64,000 nucleotides of DNA, taken from sequence record OR757453.1. One strand, given 5' to 3'. Below the pieces are notes generated by a model. The model made no database searches. It was given only the letters and a program-made list of their open reading frames with translations, and had not been told where the DNA came from. Origin of the DNA: Escherichia phage BYEP01. Below are positions 1 through 8,085 of this stretch, one piece after another. Position 1 is the stretch's first letter, and every line of letters begins with the position of its first letter. Position numbers and translations under genes: made by a program.

Positions 1-83
1 ACTCGCAAAGCAAAACAAATGGTTAAATTAGGATATAAGCCTAACTTTGCCAAATATCCTTCTACATATTCTTGGATGAACTA

Positions 84-632
84 ATGAAACAATACCAATT
101 TTTAATTAAAGATATCCTGGAAAATGGCTATGAAACTGATGATCGAACAGGCACAGGAACAATTGCTCTGTTCGGTACTAAATTACGCTGGGATTTAACT
201 AAAGGTTTTCCTGCAGTAACGACTAAGAAGCTCGCCTGGAAAGCTTGTATTGCTGAGCTCCTTTGGTTTTTATCAGGAAGTACTAACGTAAATGATTTAC
301 GATTAATTCAGCATAATTCATTAATTCAAGGTAAAACAGTCTGGGATGAAAATTACGAAAACCAAGCAAAAGATTTAGGATATCATAGTGGTGAACTTGG
401 TCCAATTTATGGAAAACAATGGCGTGATTTTGGTGGTGTAGATCAAATTGTAGAAGTTATTGATCGTATTAAAAAACTACCAAATGATAGGCGTCAAATC
501 GTTTCAGCATGGAATCCAGCTGAACTTAAATATATGGCATTACCGCCCTGTCATATGTTCTATCAGTTTAATGTGCGTAATGGTTATCTTGACCTTCAGT
601 GGTATCAACGATCAGTAGATGTTTTCTTGGGT
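84..632 (+). CDS. td: thymidylate synthase, exon 1 (ends ...RSVDVFLG; alternative upstream ATG at 72)
   Basis: Translation matches the thymidylate synthase family and T4 Td from memory; reading frame is broken by a stop at 633-635 and resumes at 896. Confidence 0.9.
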
Positions 633-895
633 TAATTGAGGCCTGAGTATAAGGTGACTTATACTTGTAATCTATCTAAACGGGGGACCTCTCTAGTAGA
701 CAATCCCGTGCTAAATGTGTAGGACTTTGGTTCTACCTAAATGCCTAACGACTATCCCTTTAGGGAGTAGGGTCAAGTGACTCGAAACGATAGACATCTT
801 GCTTCATCAAGATGGAGATATAGTCTGATCTGTATGGTGACATGCAGCTGGATATAATTCCGGGATAAGATTAACGACCTTATCTGAACATAATG
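633..895 (+). ncRNA. group I self-splicing intron in td, ~263 nt, no internal ORF
   Basis: Interrupts td between ...VFLG and LPFNIAS...; begins taattgaggcctgag right after exon-terminal U, contains gggtcaagtgactcgaaacg core-like segment, ends ...acataatg (terminal G) before exon 2; too short to hold an endonuclease ORF. Confidence 0.8.
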
Positions 896-1207
896 CTTCC
901 ATTTAATATTGCATCATATGCTGCATTAGTTCATATTGTAGCTAAGATGTGTAATCTTATTCCAGGAGATTTGATATTTTCTGGCGGTAATACTCATATC
1001 TATATGAATCACGTAGAACAATGTAAAGAAATTTTGCGTCGTGAACCTAAAGAGCTTTGTGAACTGGTAATAGGCGGATTGCCTTATAAATTCCGCTATC
1101 TTTCTACTAAAGAACAATTGGAATATGTTCTTAAACTCAGGCCTAAAGATTTCGTTCTTAAAGGTTACGAATCACACCCTCCTATTAAAGGAAAAATGGC
1201 GGTGTAA
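896..1207 (+). CDS. td: thymidylate synthase, exon 2 (LPFNIASYAALVHIV...KGKMAV)
   Basis: In-frame continuation of Td after the intron; conserved TS C-terminal region. Confidence 0.9.
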   Translation, partial: LPFNIASYAALVHIVAKMCNLIPGDLIFSGGNTHIYMNHVEQCKEILRREPKELCELVIGGLPYKFRYLSTKEQLEYVLKLRPKDFVLKGYESHPPIKGKMAV

Positions 1208-1230
1208 TTAATTATTAATTGTGAGGATAT

Positions 1231-1494
1231 ATGATTTTACGATTTAAGGATACTTCTGGCGTCGTTCTTTTTACACTTCCTAATCCAAGTGAGTTAGAAG
1301 TTCCAGGACCAGAACAGCCTATTATTATTTATGGCAAAAAATATTATACTCATAAAATGACTCGTGAGTATTTTGATAATAAAATTTCCACAGTTAAAAC
1401 TTCTTCTGATTGTTATTATGATATTACTGTTTTAACGGAAAAACAATATGACGAACTATTACCGCGCGGGCCGTCTATGCCGGGTAGTGAATAA
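1231..1494 (+). CDS. hypothetical small protein (nrdA.2 position)
   Basis: 87-aa ORF between td and nrdA; overlaps next ORF by 47 nt. Confidence 0.4.
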
Positions 1495-1774
1495 ATATAA
1501 ATCCGACTTTGATGTTAATATTCACCGTGGTACATTTTGGGGAAATTACGTCGGTAAAGATGCTGGCAGCCGGGAGGCTGCCATTGAATTATTCAAAAAA
1601 GATTTTATACGTCGAATTAAATCCGGAGAAATAACTAAAGCACATTTAGAGCCTTTACGTGGAATGAGGCTAGGATGCACATGTAAACCAAAGCCGTGTC
1701 ATGGTGATATAATAGCTCATATAGTTAACCGATTGTTTAAAGACGATTTTCAAGTTGAGGACTTATGCAATTAA
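1448..1774 (+). CDS. DUF4326-like protein (RVVNK...FWGN...GCTCKPxPCHGD motif), nrdA.1 position
   Basis: 108-aa ORF with conserved Cys/His motif [15 protein letters not shown]; overlaps nrdA start. Confidence 0.55.
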
Positions 1775-3198
1775 TTAATGTTATCAAAAGTAGTGGTGTT
1801 TCTCAGAGCTTTGACCCACAAAAAATTATTAAAGTTTTATCTTGGGCAGCTGAAGGAACATCTGTAGATCCTTATGAATTATATGAAAATATTAAATCAT
1901 ATCTCCGTGATGGAATGACCACTGATGACATTCAGACTATTGTCATTAAGGCTGCTGCGAATTCTATTTCGGTTGAAGAGCCTGATTATCAATATGTAGC
2001 TGCACGCTGTTTAATGTTTGCTCTTCGTAAGCATGTTTACGGGCAATATGAACCACGTTCATTTATTGACCATATTTCTTACTGCGTAAATGAAGGTAAA
2101 TATGACCCTGAATTGTTGTCAAAATATTCAGCAGAAGAAATTACATTTTTAGAATCAAAAATTAAGCACGAGCGGGATATGGAATTTACTTATTCCGGGG
2201 CGATGCAATTAAAAGAAAAATATCTAGTTAAAGATAAAACCACTGGTCAAATTTATGAAACTCCACAGTTTGCATTTATGGCTATTGGAATGGCACTGCA
2301 TCAAGATGAACCTGTTGATAGATTAAAACATGTCATTCGTTTTTATGAAGCAGTATCTACTCGACAGATTTCATTGCCAACTCCTATTATGGCTGGTTGT
2401 CGTACTCCAACTCGACAGTTTAGTTCATGCGTTGTTATTGAAGCAGGTGATTCGCTGAAGTCTATCAATAAGGCTTCTGCTTCAATTGTTGAGTATATTT
2501 CTAAACGAGCTGGAATTGGCATTAACGTTGGTATGATTCGTGCCGAAGGTTCTAAGATTAGCACAGGTGAAGTGCGTCATACTGGTGTTATTCCTTTTTG
2601 GAAACATTTTCAGACTGCAGTTAAATCATGCTCACAGGGTGGAATTCGTGGCGGCGCTGCTACTGCTTATTATCCTATTTGGCATTTGGAAGTTGAAAAT
2701 CTTCTCGTTTTGAAAAATAACAAAGGCGTAGAAGAAAACCGTATTCGTCATATGGATTATGGCGTCCAGCTGAATGATTTGATGATGGAACGTTTTGGAA
2801 AGAACGACTACATTACTTTGTTCAGTCCACATGAAATGGGTGGTGAGCTTTATTATTCTTATTTTAAAGACCAAGACCGTTTCCGTGAATTATATGAAGC
2901 CGCAGAAAAAGACCCTAATATTCGTAAAAAGCGTATTAAAGCCCGTGAACTGTTTGAATTGCTCATGACTGAACGATCAGGAACAGCAAGGATTTATGTA
3001 CAGTTCATAGATAATACGAATAACTATACTCCGTTTATTCGTGAAAAGGCACCTATTCGTCAGAGCAACTTGTGTTGTGAAATTGCTATTCCAACAAATG
3101 ATGTGAATAGTCAACAAACCCGTTTAATCAAAATTAAGAAGTCGGATGTAGCTAAGTTTTATGAAGCTAATCCTGGCGGTATAATTCAAAGCAAATAA
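1765..3198 (+). CDS. nrdA: ribonucleotide reductase large subunit, N-terminal fragment (477 aa), ends shortly after the SNLCCEIAIPTNDVN active-site segment
   Basis: Class Ia NrdA homology (ATP cone to NxCxE active-site loop); ORF terminates ~26 codons after the last recognisable NrdA residues. Confidence 0.85.
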   Translation: MQLINVIKSSGVSQSFDPQKIIKVLSWAAEGTSVDPYELYENIKSYLRDGMTTDDIQTIVIKAAANSISVEEPDYQYVAARCLMFALRKHVYGQYEPRSFIDHISYCVNEGKYDPELLSKYSAEEITFLESKIKHERDMEFTYSGAMQLKEKYLVKDKTTGQIYETPQFAFMAIGMALHQDEPVDRLKHVIRFYEAVSTRQISLPTPIMAGCRTPTRQFSSCVVIEAGDSLKSINKASASIVEYISKRAGIGINVGMIRAEGSKISTGEVRHTGVIPFWKHFQTAVKSCSQGGIRGGAATAYYPIWHLEVENLLVLKNNKGVEENRIRHMDYGVQLNDLMMERFGKNDYITLFSPHEMGGELYYSYFKDQDRFRELYEAAEKDPNIRKKRIKARELFELLMTERSGTARIYVQFIDNTNNYTPFIREKAPIRQSNLCCEIAIPTNDVNSQQTRLIKIKKSDVAKFYEANPGGIIQSK

Positions 3199-3246
3199 AG
3201 TACACAGACCGTTAATAATAAATAATCCATAACAAGAGGAAAAGTT

Positions 3247-3957
3247 ATGGATTATTCTAAAATTTACAATAACCTTATTTCTAAAGCTAAGAATAGAAAA
3301 TTAGATTGCTATACCGAATCACACCATATTATACCTCTGTGTATTGGCGGTTCTGATACAAAAGAAAACCTGGTAGATTTGACACCAGAAGAGCATTACA
3401 TAGCTCATCAATTATTAGTAAAGATATATCCAGATAATCATAAATTGATATTTGCCGCTAATATGATGTGTGTTTATTCTGAAGATAATATTGAACGAAA
3501 GAACACCAATAAACGTCATGGGTGGCTTAGAAGAAAATTGGCTATTTCTGTATCTGAAAATAATAAAGGCAAACCGGCTTGGAACAAAGGTATTCCTATG
3601 TCTCCAGAAGTTAAATCTCGACTTCAAACATCTTGGGTGTTTACATTTCCGGATGGTCATGAGGAAATTCATCGAGGTCTTAACGAATTTTGTAAAGAGC
3701 ATAATTTAAATGCATCTGCGATGTCAGCCGTTTGTAAAGGTAAACGGGCGCATCACAAAGGATTTAAGTGTAAGAAATTGGATAAGATTTCAGAGCTTGA
3801 TAATTTAGTTTTCGTCAGTAAACCTCATCCAAAGGGATTAAAACCCCATAACTTAATTGCTGTAAAAATAAACGGTATAGAATATCAATCAATACATCGA
3901 GCATCTAAAGCTTTAGGAATTACTAGAAAAAAGGTAGAAGAATTAAATGAATATTGA
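3247..3957 (+). CDS. HNH homing endonuclease, free-standing, inserted inside nrdA
   Basis: 236-aa ORF with N-terminal YSKIYNNLI...TESHHIIPLCIGGSDTKENLVDLTPEEHYIAHQLL HNH motif; paralogous to ORFs at 30598-31290 and 49730-50542. Confidence 0.8.
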   Translation: MDYSKIYNNLISKAKNRKLDCYTESHHIIPLCIGGSDTKENLVDLTPEEHYIAHQLLVKIYPDNHKLIFAANMMCVYSEDNIERKNTNKRHGWLRRKLAISVSENNKGKPAWNKGIPMSPEVKSRLQTSWVFTFPDGHEEIHRGLNEFCKEHNLNASAMSAVCKGKRAHHKGFKCKKLDKISELDNLVFVSKPHPKGLKPHNLIAVKINGIEYQSIHRASKALGITRKKVEELNEY

Positions 3958-4936
3958 TTATGAATTTGTAGATGAATTTTACGAAGATGATGAGTATACT
4001 ACAATAGAAGTTATTGAAAACAGGGGAGAAGTGGGGCTTTGTACCCTTAGCGCATTTGTGTTGGATAACTTCGATTGGCAAGACCAAGACAAAATTAATG
4101 AATTAGCAGAAGTTCAAGTTCGTGCTCTTGATAATCTTTTGGACTACCAAGGATATCCAGTTCCTGAAGCAGAAAAAGCTAAAAAGCGTCGAAACCTTGG
4201 CGTAGGTGTTACTAACTATGCAGCTTGGCTGGCAAGTAACTTTGCTTCTTATGAAGATGCTAACGATTTAACACATGAACTATTTGAGAGATTGCAGTAT
4301 GGACTCATTAAAGCATCCATTAAGCTCGCCAAAGAAAAAGGACCTTGCGAATATTATTCAGACACTCGTTGGTCTCGAGGCGAATTACCTATCGACTGGT
4401 ACAATAAAAAGATTGACCAAATCGCAGCTCCAAAATACGTTTGTGATTGGGACGAACTTCGATCTGAACTCAAACAGCATGGAATTCGAAATTCTACTTT
4501 ATCCGCGTTGATGCCGTGTGAATCATCCAGTCAGGTATCTAACAGTACAAACGGTATCGAGCCTCCACGTGGACCAGTCTCTGTTAAAGAATCAAAAGAG
4601 GGTTCCTTTAATCAAGTCGTGCCCAATATTGAGCATAACATAGACCTCTATGATTATACGTGGAAATTAGCTAAGAAAGGTAATAAACCTTATCTTACGC
4701 AGGTAGCTATTATGCTGAAATGGGTATGTCAATCAGCTTCAGCGAATACATATTATGACCCGCAGATTTTTCCAAAAGGAAAGGTTCCAATGTCTGTAAT
4801 GATTGATGACATGCTATACGGATGGTATTATGGCATTAAAAACTTCTATTATCATAATACCCGTGATGGTTCTGGTACTGATGATTATGAAATAGAAACT
4901 CCCAAAGCTGAAGATTGTTCATCCTGTAAATTATGA
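3947..4936 (+). CDS. nrdA: ribonucleotide reductase large subunit, C-terminal fragment (GEVGLCTLSAF... to C-terminal Cys pair)
   Basis: Class Ia NrdA C-terminal homology including the CTLSAF cysteine loop and C-terminal CSSCKL tail; own ATG overlapping the HNH gene stop. Confidence 0.8.
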   Translation: MNIDYEFVDEFYEDDEYTTIEVIENRGEVGLCTLSAFVLDNFDWQDQDKINELAEVQVRALDNLLDYQGYPVPEAEKAKKRRNLGVGVTNYAAWLASNFASYEDANDLTHELFERLQYGLIKASIKLAKEKGPCEYYSDTRWSRGELPIDWYNKKIDQIAAPKYVCDWDELRSELKQHGIRNSTLSALMPCESSSQVSNSTNGIEPPRGPVSVKESKEGSFNQVVPNIEHNIDLYDYTWKLAKKGNKPYLTQVAIMLKWVCQSASANTYYDPQIFPKGKVPMSVMIDDMLYGWYYGIKNFYYHNTRDGSGTDDYEIETPKAEDCSSCKL

Positions 4937-4987
4937 TATAATTTGACTCATGGACGAGTCACCAACTATTAACTAAGTGGAAAATTT

Positions 4988-5663
4988 ATGAGCACAGTTT
5001 TTAATACAAATCCAGTTGATGTTTTAACAGAACCTATGTTCTTCGGTTCAGGTCTTGGAATTGCACGTTATGATATTCAACGACATAAGGTATTTGAAGA
5101 ACTTATTGAACGTTCGCTCTCGTTTTTCTGGCGGCCTGAAGAAGTAAACTTAATGATGGATGCTGCACAATTTAACAAGCTCCCAGAACACCAAAAATCT
5201 ATATTTATCAATAACTTAAAATACCAGTCATTGTTAGACTCCATCCAGGGGCGTGCACCATCTGCGGTACTTATGCCATTGCTTTCAGATCCAAGCCTTG
5301 ATACATGGGTAGCAACATGGACTTTTAGCGAAACTATTCACAGTCGTTCATATACCCATATCATGCGTAACTTGTTCAATGACCCTGCTAAGGTATTTGA
5401 TGAGATTGTACTAGATGAAGCTATCATGAAACGTGCTGAATCTATCGGTCGCTATTATGATGATGTTCTGACTAAAACCCGTGAATGGGAAAATGCTAAA
5501 GAATTTACAGAACTAGCTAAAGAATCTCCTGATGCTGTTTTTCGTTTAAATCGAGCTATTAAACAAGAAGCCGAAGCTAAACGTGCTTTAATGAAATCTC
5601 TTTACCTCTGTTTGCACGTTATTAATGCCTTAGAAGCTATTCGTTTTTATGTATCTTTTGCGT
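4988..5663 (+). CDS. nrdB: ribonucleotide reductase small subunit, exon 1
   Basis: NrdB homology (…RFYVSFAC junction); frame broken by taa at 5663-5665. Confidence 0.85.
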
Positions 5664-5967
5664 AAAATGCGCCTTTAAACGGTAACGTTTATCGAAAACT
5701 CCTTTAATTGCTGGAAAGTCCTTTATAGGAAAACTAGCAGCCAAGGTTTTGCTTGCACCTTTAATTAGCATAATATAAATGATTATACTTTTAAGAGGAT
5801 GCACAATTGCAAAGCAAGGTTCAACGACTAGTCTTCGGACGTAGGGTCAAGCGACTCGAAATGGGGAGAATCCCTCTGGGATTGTGATATAGTCTGGTCT
5901 GCATAGTAATATGTAGCAGTTCATAAGAGAACGGGTTGAGAATTAGCGAGCTCAATCGAACATAACG
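5664..5967 (+). ncRNA. group I self-splicing intron in nrdB, ~304 nt, no internal ORF
   Basis: Separates NrdB ...SFAC from TFNFHKNMEIMEGNAKI...; contains gggtcaagcgactcgaaatgg segment nearly identical to the td intron core; boundaries inferred from restoring the NrdB frame. Confidence 0.7.
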
Positions 5968-6470
5968 GTACCTTTAACTTCCATAAGAACATGGAAATCA
6001 TGGAAGGTAATGCCAAGATTATGAAGTTCATTGCACGTGATGAGCAGCTTCACCTTAAAGGCACCCAATATATTATTCGTCAACTTCAATCCGGTACTGA
6101 TGGCGATGAATGGGTTAAAATTGCTCAAGAGTGTGAACAAGAAGCAGTTGATATTTTCATGGAAGTTAACCGCCAAGAAAAAGACTGGGCAGTTCATTTA
6201 TTTAAAGATGGCGATGTTCCTGGATTAAATACAAATAGCATGTGGAGCTTTATTGATTACTTAACTGTATCTCGTATGAAACAGTGCGGTCTTCCATGCC
6301 CAATTACCGATGCTCCGGTTAAACATCCGTATCCTTGGATTCGTGAATACCTTAATTCTGATAATGTTCAATCCGCGCCACAAGAAGTAGAACTGTCATC
6401 TTACCTTGTTGCACAGATTGATAATGATGTTGATGATAAAGTTATGATGAGTTTTAAAAAATACTTTTAA
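5968..6470 (+). CDS. nrdB: ribonucleotide reductase small subunit, exon 2
   Basis: In-frame NrdB C-terminal region (…EGNAKIMKFIARDEQLHL…SSYLVAQIDNDVDD…). Confidence 0.85.
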
Positions 6471-6474
6471 GGAG

Positions 6475-6497
6475 TGGGCCGCAAGGCCCATTTTATT
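6475..6497 (+). terminator. rho-independent terminator-like hairpin after nrdB
   Basis: tgggccgcaaggccca stem-loop followed by T-run. Confidence 0.5.

Positions 6498-8085
<1,588 letters not shown>

Follow-up and report, generated by a model that had tools for sequence, protein, structure and literature searches.

A split nrdA gene in Escherichia phage BYEP01: very probably a member of an Aeh1-type family of MobE cassettes with conserved peptide tails

In Aeromonas phage Aeh1, the gene for the large (R1) subunit of ribonucleotide reductase (RNR) comes in two pieces (nrdA-a, nrdA-b), and between them lies the gene for a homing endonuclease, mobE (Friedrich et al. 2007 PNAS; Crona et al. 2011 NAR, PMC3045599). 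The peptide tails that the two halves acquire at the break are present in the mature proteins, as seen by mass spectrometry, and the enzyme is fully active; the tails are essential—deletion cuts activity about 2000-fold (Crona et al. 2011, PMC3045599). The same study showed co-transcription with independent initiation, stressed the basic and acidic charge pattern of the tails, and reported that database searches with the tails found nothing. A 2013 survey of phage RNRs has Aeh1 as its sole entry for this mechanism, and further such nrdA insertions have since been mentioned in passing, as unpublished (2022 preprint, bioRxiv 10.1101/2022.08.31.505936). Here we describe the split nrdA gene of Escherichia phage BYEP01 (sequence record OR757453.1), which very probably belongs with that of Aeh1 to one type of element, the 'split-nrdA MobE cassette'. 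The stretch analysed, 64,000 nucleotides (nt) long, is called the window, and positions without another label refer to it.

Several other arrangements resemble this one in part. T4 has a free-standing MobE, encoded between nrdA and nrdB, which nicks nrdB (Wilson & Edgell 2009, PMC2790892); its nrdA is intact and mobE lies downstream, just as an earlier reading of the window's sequence (the original prediction) had it. The T4 and BYEP01 genes are of the same HNH family, occupy the same gene neighborhood, and have the character of mobile elements that promote gene conversion, but T4 MobE, at 141 amino acids (aa), is intergenic, splits no gene, and comes without tails. In the window it is nrdA that is disrupted, and the 51 nt that separate nrdA-C from nrdB hold no mobE. 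In T4, the large subunit of topoisomerase has been divided by the MobA element between genes 39 and 60, the products of which are extended at the C and N terminus (bioRxiv 10.1101/2022.08.31.505936). There, too, segments on either side of a related HNH gene, out of frame with it, supply tails for the two parts of an essential enzyme; the element includes a replacement copy of its target, and the extensions are retained after endonuclease loss, as in one relative described below (L027). The gene is a different one, however, the extensions are longer (about 44 aa), and there is a 50-nt translational bypass, to which nothing in the window is comparable. Fractured nrdA genes of the type described by Dassa et al. 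(PMC2677866) are likewise in two pieces with a divided active site; these break at C439, instead, carry a C-intein of roughly 33 aa ending VHN↓C (the arrow marks the junction), and function by protein trans-splicing, not by non-covalent assembly. Finally, the group I introns of the T-even phages (td, nrdB and nrdD) are also mobile elements in nucleotide-metabolism genes, with endonuclease translation repressed by RNA structure, but they possess the RF00028 ribozyme core and splice as RNA, and those of td and nrdB in the window contain no open reading frame (ORF).

The three ORFs of the split gene—NrdA-N, HNH and NrdA-C—are real, and lie where the original prediction placed them, according to the ORF list and the raw sequence. 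The features of the locus are these:

1765-3198, + strand: nrdA-N ORF, 477 aa; ATP-cone, RNR all-alpha domain, and RNR barrel profile positions 1-221 of 523 (Pfam)
3112-4027, no strand assigned ("."): inserted cassette, 916 nt, found by alignment with intact alleles
3112-3198, + strand: tail-coding segment, QQTRLIKIKKSDVAKFYEANPGGIIQSK plus stop
3199-3246, + strand: spacer from the nrdA-N stop to the HNH start, 48 nt; Shine-Dalgarno (SD) sequence GAGG at 3236-3239
3217-3224, + strand: candidate late-promoter box, AATAAATA, 7/8 match to the T4 late box, TATAAATA
3221-3256, + strand: predicted RNA hairpin, 13-bp stem (3221-3233 with 3244-3256) and 10-nt loop holding the SD
3247-3957, + strand: HNH ORF, 236 aa; HNH motif and I-HmuI NUMOD-like domain (Pfam)
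3947-4936, + strand: nrdA-C ORF, 329 aa; RNR barrel profile positions 220-523 (Pfam)
3947-4027, + strand: acidic leader of nrdA-C, 27 aa, MNIDYEFVDEFYEDDEYTTIEVIENRG
4028-4056, + strand: recoded right flank, GAAGTGGGGCTTTGTACCCTTAGCGCA in the window versus GAAATTGGATTGTGCACGTTATCTGCA in intact alleles; encodes E(V/I)GLCTLSA

When the window is aligned with the intact nrdA of W143, a single length difference of 907 nt appears. Alignments with W143, T4 and RB69 show that 9 nt, CCTGATGCT, which code for P450-D451-A452 of T4 NrdA, have been replaced by the 916-nt insert, the GC content of which is 32.4%, compared with 37-39% in the nrdA cores. Native NrdA residues 1-449 occupy 1765-3111; NrdA-N is thus native up to Ser449 and then continues for 28 cassette-encoded residues, and NrdA-C is native from E28 (E453 of T4) onward, after 27 new residues. 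The original prediction had put these at 26 and about 25 codons, a slip in an otherwise correct description. The HNH stop codon (3955-3957) overlaps the NrdA-C start (3947). Sequencing error as the source of the break can be excluded because the same arrangement recurs: in 12 of the 12 alleles that were read base by base (from 34), none of the three ORFs is broken and their lengths are conserved, the HNH gene is present in 34 phage records, and the arrangement is found in metagenomic contigs, as well.

The break falls in the loop between the strand with C439 and E441 and the strand with C462. NrdA-N aligns to residues 6-455 of E. coli R1 and carries the equivalents of C225, N437, C439 and E441 (here C222, N435, C437 and E439). 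NrdA-C aligns from residue 452 on and carries the C462 equivalent (Cys32), the YY pair, and the C-terminal CxxC motif, in the form CSSC. The residues of the active site are divided between two polypeptides, therefore, as the original prediction maintained.

The HNH protein matches PHROG 655, 'homing endonuclease' (E 9e-59), and comprises an N-terminal HNH motif, a central I-HmuI NUMOD-like domain, and a C-terminal region that is missing from T4 MobE. When 50,697 phage records were searched by tblastn, its best match beyond 34 near-identical records was Aeh1 MobE, to which it is 44.5% identical over 227 aa (E 7e-56)—that is, over its full length. Its identity to T4 MobE, 45%, is confined to the N-terminal 130 aa. 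The gene is under purifying selection, with a ratio of nonsynonymous to synonymous substitution (dN/dS) of 0.16. The Aeh1 locus (L017), which we located by tblastn with an Aeromonas phage NrdA, is strikingly alike in layout. The insertion is in the same loop, between the equivalents of C439 and C462 (the latter being Cys31 in Aeh1 NrdA-b), and the gene order and sizes agree: 473, 237 and 323 aa in Aeh1 versus 477, 236 and 329 aa here, with spacers of 46 and 48 nt ahead of the endonuclease gene, and with the endonuclease stop overlapping the downstream start in both. Shared, too, are a free-standing MobE-family HNH gene, a basic C-tail, an acidic N-leader, and a hairpin over the start of endonuclease translation. 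The two phages are otherwise far apart. The nearest public relatives of the window are Tequatrovirus, growing on E. coli, whereas Aeh1, a Cinqassovirus, grows on Aeromonas; identity between the NrdA cores is just 51-58%; and the distal part of the tail differs. The cassette seen here circulates among many phages, and the biochemistry exists for Aeh1, BYEP01 being known from its sequence. Judged on these resemblances, the BYEP01 cassette is a further example of a known arrangement, and a relative of the Aeh1 cassette.

Intermediates between the two came from metagenomes, by searching a large protein collection with NrdA-C and then reading the gene contexts of the matches:

L023 and L024: NrdA-C 78% identical to the window, HNH 66% identical; T4-like gene context
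L025 and L026: NrdA-C 64% identical to the window, HNH 53% identical; HNH gene between the halves
P0013: NrdA-C 52%; short contig, with the HNH region outside its reach
L028: NrdA-C 51%; upstream ORF homologous to the C-terminal part of the HNH protein and overlapping the nrdA-C start; contig ends before NrdA-N
L027 (2478-5008): NrdA-C 50%; no HNH gene; NrdA-N 481 aa, 77-nt spacer, NrdA-C 335 aa

From the nearest of these to Aeh1, divergence of the HNH protein (66, 53 and 44% identity) tracks that of NrdA (73-78, 64 and 51-58%), which suggests that the cassette has been long resident in each lineage. L027 is split at the same loop and has homologous tails, ...KFVRVPKGKVDEFKEKY... and ...KDDEYEYFQI..., in a metagenomic context that is not T4-like, its neighbors being a 5'-3' exonuclease, RuvC, RNase H and MazG. 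It appears to have lost the endonuclease and kept the split.

The tails themselves turn out to be conserved. In the window the C-terminal tail is basic, with an isoelectric point (pI) of 10.0 and six K/R to two D/E (29 aa scored, including the preceding Ser), and the leader of NrdA-C is acidic, with a pI of 4.05 and ten D/E to one K/R (first 26 aa scored). The charge pattern of Aeh1 is equal to this—about 10 for the C-tail, and 4.05 for the leader. In local alignments with Aeh1, the score of the C-tails (window TRLIKIKKSDVAKF, Aeh1 KMLFKVKKSEVDKF) was reached by three of 20,000 composition-preserving shuffles, and that of the N-leaders (window DEFYEDDEYTTIEV, Aeh1 YEVYEDEEYTTVEI) by one of 20,000. 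The consensus motifs, h-h-K-h-K-K-S-x-V-x-x-F for the tail and (F/V)-Y-E-D-D-E-Y-T-T for the leader, are conserved across five to seven lineages. We take the tail and leader to be homologous to the Aeh1 tails on this evidence, and the statement that the latter have no database match is no longer true. Compared between the window and both L023 and L025, the flanking peptides have proportions of synonymous change (pS) of 0.65-0.87, near saturation, and of nonsynonymous change (pN) of 0.05-0.28, giving pN/pS of 0.06-0.32; for the tail against L023 alone, pN/pS is 0.21 and pS is 0.85. Because pS is so high while pN is so low, the tail and leader evidently evolve as coding sequence, translated and constrained. 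Neither matches anything in Pfam or PDB at E<=10, leaving an origin from an intein or from some other domain unsupported. A 50-aa profile of the leader, run against a set of 5.8 billion proteins, returned a single fragment, by way of a word pre-filter that is ill-suited to short queries, and an IMG/VR scan with leader peptide patterns returned Aeh1 itself only; the cassette is rare in that collection, or absent from it.

Among phages, the whole 3.2-kb arrangement is present in 32 records, and the HNH gene, at an identity of at least 89%, in 34. The genome papers of three carriers—vB_EcoM_112, UFV-AREG1 and fPS-2—do not mention the split nrdA. The carriers span two kinds of nrdA, T4-type and RB69-type; AV111 and ZQ3, which belong to Mosigvirus, are RB69-type, as are F2, PTE-Eco05 and JM17. 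Cores of the two types are about 77% identical, at a synonymous divergence (dS) of about 2-2.5, and yet the cassette is 88-100% identical across both backgrounds: 99-100% in the tail DNA, 95-99% in the leader, and 88-99% in the HNH gene. Between HY01 (T4-type) and ZQ3 (RB69-type), two of 711 HNH positions differ and the tails are identical, at a dS of 2.5 in the nrdA-N core. Since the cassette is 88-100% identical in nrdA genes that are only about 77% identical, it has been transferred horizontally, and recently, between T4-type and RB69-type nrdA. Mapped site by site, with RB69 itself as the intact RB69-type allele, a role for which QL01 and phage 04086 were unsuitable, the RB69-type alleles pass into the shared sequence between 3097 and 3109 on the left, within ~15 nt, and within 20-75 nt on the right, these flanks having moved with the cassette. 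The right-hand tract varies in length among alleles, and its first 30 nt differ from intact alleles mostly by synonymous changes. This recoded flank is likely to be a remnant of the donor exon and, at the same time, the target region of the endonuclease, made immune.

The HNH genes fall into two sub-lineages, a window type and an HY01 type, that differ mainly at residues about 117-190. Seventy of the roughly 100 mismatches lie within a 250-nt stretch (3562-3811), and the F2 gene is a recombinant of both types. The pattern suggests that a central DNA-binding module has been exchanged between endonuclease variants.

Ahead of the endonuclease gene, the RNA is predicted to fold. The 13-bp stem buries the HNH start codon (3247-3249) in its 3' arm and has a free energy of -13.8 kcal/mol (z -3.95); none of 200 shuffled sequences was equally stable. 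The hairpin recurs in L023, where two of its base pairs have changed on both sides in a compensatory way, one from C-G to U-A and the other from A-U to G-C. L025 and Aeh1 have different hairpins, equally strong, over their ribosome binding sites (RBSs); the one in Aeh1 was reproduced in our analysis, and there it is the SD that is in the stem, whereas in the window the SD is in the loop. The Aeh1 mobE RBS is sequestered, and a late promoter bypasses the sequestration (summarized in PMC2988022). In BYEP01, the conserved hairpin is predicted to be a translational repressor of the endonuclease. AATAAATA overlaps the beginning of its 5' arm, and a TAAATA core occupies the same relative place in L023, L025 and Aeh1; from its 7/8 match to the T4 box we suggest this element as a candidate late promoter. 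A scan for promoters and terminators gave counts at chance level, and no terminator-like site on the + strand inside the cassette. The start region of NrdA-C is unstructured (z -0.35). An open start and a terminator-free cassette would be compatible with co-transcription and independent initiation, as in Aeh1. Just upstream of AATAAATA and the hairpin, in the spacer, the window has a 3-nt insertion, TAA (3213-3215), found in none of the 11 other split alleles.

How else might such a locus be explained? The insert could be a group I or other self-splicing intron with an HNH ORF inside it, the removal of which restores a NrdA of roughly 751 aa. Introns of this class do occur in nucleotide-metabolism genes of T4-like phages, two of them within the window, and precise excision of 3112-4027 keeps the reading frame. 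The original prediction dismissed an intron for want of room, counting ~110 nt outside the HNH ORF. The conclusion is supported, but this argument is weak: there are ~205 nt (135 upstream and 70 downstream), a length at which a ribozyme core would not be out of the question. What does tell against an intron is a scan of 1-8000 against Rfam (E<=1), in which RF00028 was found in td (623-847, 64.1 bits) and in nrdB (5647-5916, 68.7 bits), and nothing matched in 3100-4050. Given these two internal positive controls, and given tails conserved at the protein level, an intron is very improbable: the segments beside the HNH ORF have kept their peptides through near-saturated synonymous change, and the stop or ATG that bounds them is kept in all lineages. 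Most alleles, moreover, have C as the last exon base (AGC↓C), where the P1 U-G pair requires U, and the homologous tails of Aeh1 are found in mature proteins. An intein fares no better. Were the tails the parts of a split intein, perhaps a degenerate one, protein trans-splicing would join the halves. There is precedent in fractured nrdA genes that combine split inteins with a free-standing endonuclease (Dassa et al. 2009, PMC2677866), and a degenerate-intein origin was raised as a possibility by Crona et al. Four split-intein proteins, P0006, P0012, P0026 and P0076, even surfaced in our NrdA-C search; in these, NrdA-C opens with a C-intein of roughly 33 aa (…HNFxANxILVHN↓C) at C439, ~15 residues upstream of the MobE cassette site. 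But tail and leader come to 55 aa in all, of which such a C-intein piece would by itself take about 33, and the whole splicing domain of an intein is several times as long as the two together. The insert has no splicing blocks and no junction nucleophiles: no intein or Hint domain is matched in Pfam, and nothing in PDB, at E<=10; the would-be +1 position (G27↓E28) lacks Cys, Ser or Thr; and at the junctions stand S↓Q and G↓E. In genuine split-intein genes the break is at C439 (...VHN↓C) rather than in this loop, and the Aeh1 tails persist in the mature proteins. We give trans-splicing next to no chance. The original prediction proposed that a free-standing gene for an HNH homing endonuclease splits nrdA, that neither intron nor intein is involved, and that the gene is thus in pieces as in Aeh1 ('genes-in-pieces'); Rfam, Pfam and PDB, and the coding-type conservation of the tails bear this out.

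The insertion might, alternatively, simply have inactivated nrdA, leaving the phage to rely on the reductase of its host. Phage nrdA is non-essential in laboratory hosts, and both halves are unannotated in the HY01 record. The genes do not look dead, however. Between alleles, dN/dS is 0.012-0.043 for nrdA-N and 0.03-0.11 for nrdA-C, at a dS of up to about 2.5, which is like the 0.045 of the intact gene (T4 versus RB69). Both halves are under strong purifying selection, then, and these ratios are indirect evidence that the function of both has probably been retained. All of the catalytic residues are kept, the tails are themselves under purifying selection, and the split form persists in lineages whose NrdA is 48-78% identical, even without the HNH gene (L027); the Aeh1 enzyme, for its part, is fully active. 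Inactivation seems to us very unlikely. Scarcely to be credited, finally, is an independent insertion, in which a T4-type mobE entered nrdA and converged on the Aeh1 solution—an event that the original prediction had, with some hedging, entertained. T4-like coliphages already have mobE beside nrdA, and over its N-terminal 130 aa the HNH protein shares 45% identity with T4 MobE. Against this, the closest full-length relative is Aeh1 MobE (44.5%), T4 MobE lacks the C-terminal half, the loop, spacer length, stop/start overlap and both tails are common to Aeh1 and the intermediate metagenomic lineages, and HNH divergence tracks NrdA divergence.

We favor, instead, the following account of the split-nrdA MobE cassette. 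The mobile unit, ~0.9 kb long, consists of a 28-codon basic tail in frame with the upstream half of nrdA, a free-standing MobE-family HNH gene with its own RBS, and a 27-codon acidic leader with its own ATG, in frame with the downstream half. By the experiments on Aeh1 (PMC3045599), three proteins would be translated separately from one transcript; NrdA-N and NrdA-C would form a heterodimer with a composite active site, in which the C225-C462 redox pair spans two chains; and both the (a/b)2 dimer and the binding of NrdB would depend on the oppositely charged tails. If the halves reassemble through their tails in this way, the insertion would be phenotypically neutral. To go by T4 MobE and by homing biology in general, the endonuclease would nick or cut cassette-free nrdA in mixed infections, near the segment that encodes EIGLCTLSA; repair would copy the cassette into the cut allele, and the recoded right flank would shield alleles that already have it. 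On the long nrdA transcript, the base-paired start codon would hold down translation of the endonuclease, a repression that might be lifted if a late transcript begins within the hairpin's 5' arm. An unspliced locus of this kind is expected to yield the peptides ...KFYEANPGGIIQSK and MNIDYEFVDEFYEDDEY..., rather than an NDVNS-EVGLC junction peptide.

Some points weigh against this account. The split NrdA of BYEP01 is known from its genes, and its activity is presumed by analogy with Aeh1. T4 nrdA is dispensable in laboratory hosts, so that intact genes alone are no proof of enzyme activity. NrdA-C has a weak SD (AAGG, ~12 nt upstream), and its independent translation is assumed from Aeh1. A search of the cassette for the exact T4 late-promoter box, TATAAATA, found none. 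And the putative target of the endonuclease within nrdA is deduced from the recoded flank, T4 MobE being an enzyme that targets nrdB, not nrdA.

The neighborhood of the split gene is in T4 order, with td, nrdA.2 and nrdA.1 upstream and nrdB, denA and rnlA downstream. In the window, td (72-1207) consists of ORFs 72-635 and 893-1207, and the short group I intron that parts them has no endonuclease ORF; I-TevI is found at this position in T4 and several relatives. Similarly, a group I intron lacking any ORF divides nrdB (4988-6470) into ORFs 4988-5665 and 5991-6470; of the sister phages, some have a complete I-TevIII-like gene at this place and others are intron-free. Between nrdA-C and nrdB, phage 236Ecol005PP has a DNA adenine methylase gene (L002 6213-7004) and phage F26 a large 'endonuclease' gene (L004 4710-6169); this junction looks like a hot spot for cargo. 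In phage RPN226, a gene for a GIY-YIG nuclease on the opposite strand (L006 714-1445) lies directly upstream of the split nrdA, in place of nrdA.1. Escherichia phage 04086, a Dhakavirus, has an nrdA annotated as two overlapping ORFs, 1181-2686 and 2679-3605 (L021 1181-3605), with ~170 nt extra and no endonuclease between them, which could be a frameshift, a duplication, or a problem of assembly.

The principle at work here was published for Aeh1; what is gained is breadth and tractability, not a new principle. The split reductase of Aeh1 has hitherto been treated as a near-unique curiosity, and the cassette now proves to be a family. To what was known are added the homology of the tails across lineages, a recent transfer that links two phage genera, a derivative lacking the endonuclease, and a regulatory hairpin that covaries. 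And with the cassette in T4-like coliphages, routine E. coli phage crosses and genetics allow tests of the homing target, of the co-conversion tracts, and of what the tails do. The basic and acidic peptides, as a pair, could also be of practical use as a tag for assembling split proteins.

Conserved tail motifs, movement in the present day, and survival of endonuclease loss together argue against random DNA captured once, in Aeh1, and for an evolved repair kit. We incline to the view that the tails belong to the mobile element as an evolved component. They would make up a portable complementation module of two peptides, moving together with the endonuclease, staying conserved as NrdA falls to about 48% identity, and persisting, as in L027, once the endonuclease is gone. 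The origin of this module might even be shared with the MobA extensions of the gene 39/60 split. If we are right about the tails, 'endonuclease plus assembly tails' would be a third general strategy by which mobile elements heal the genes they invade, alongside introns and inteins.

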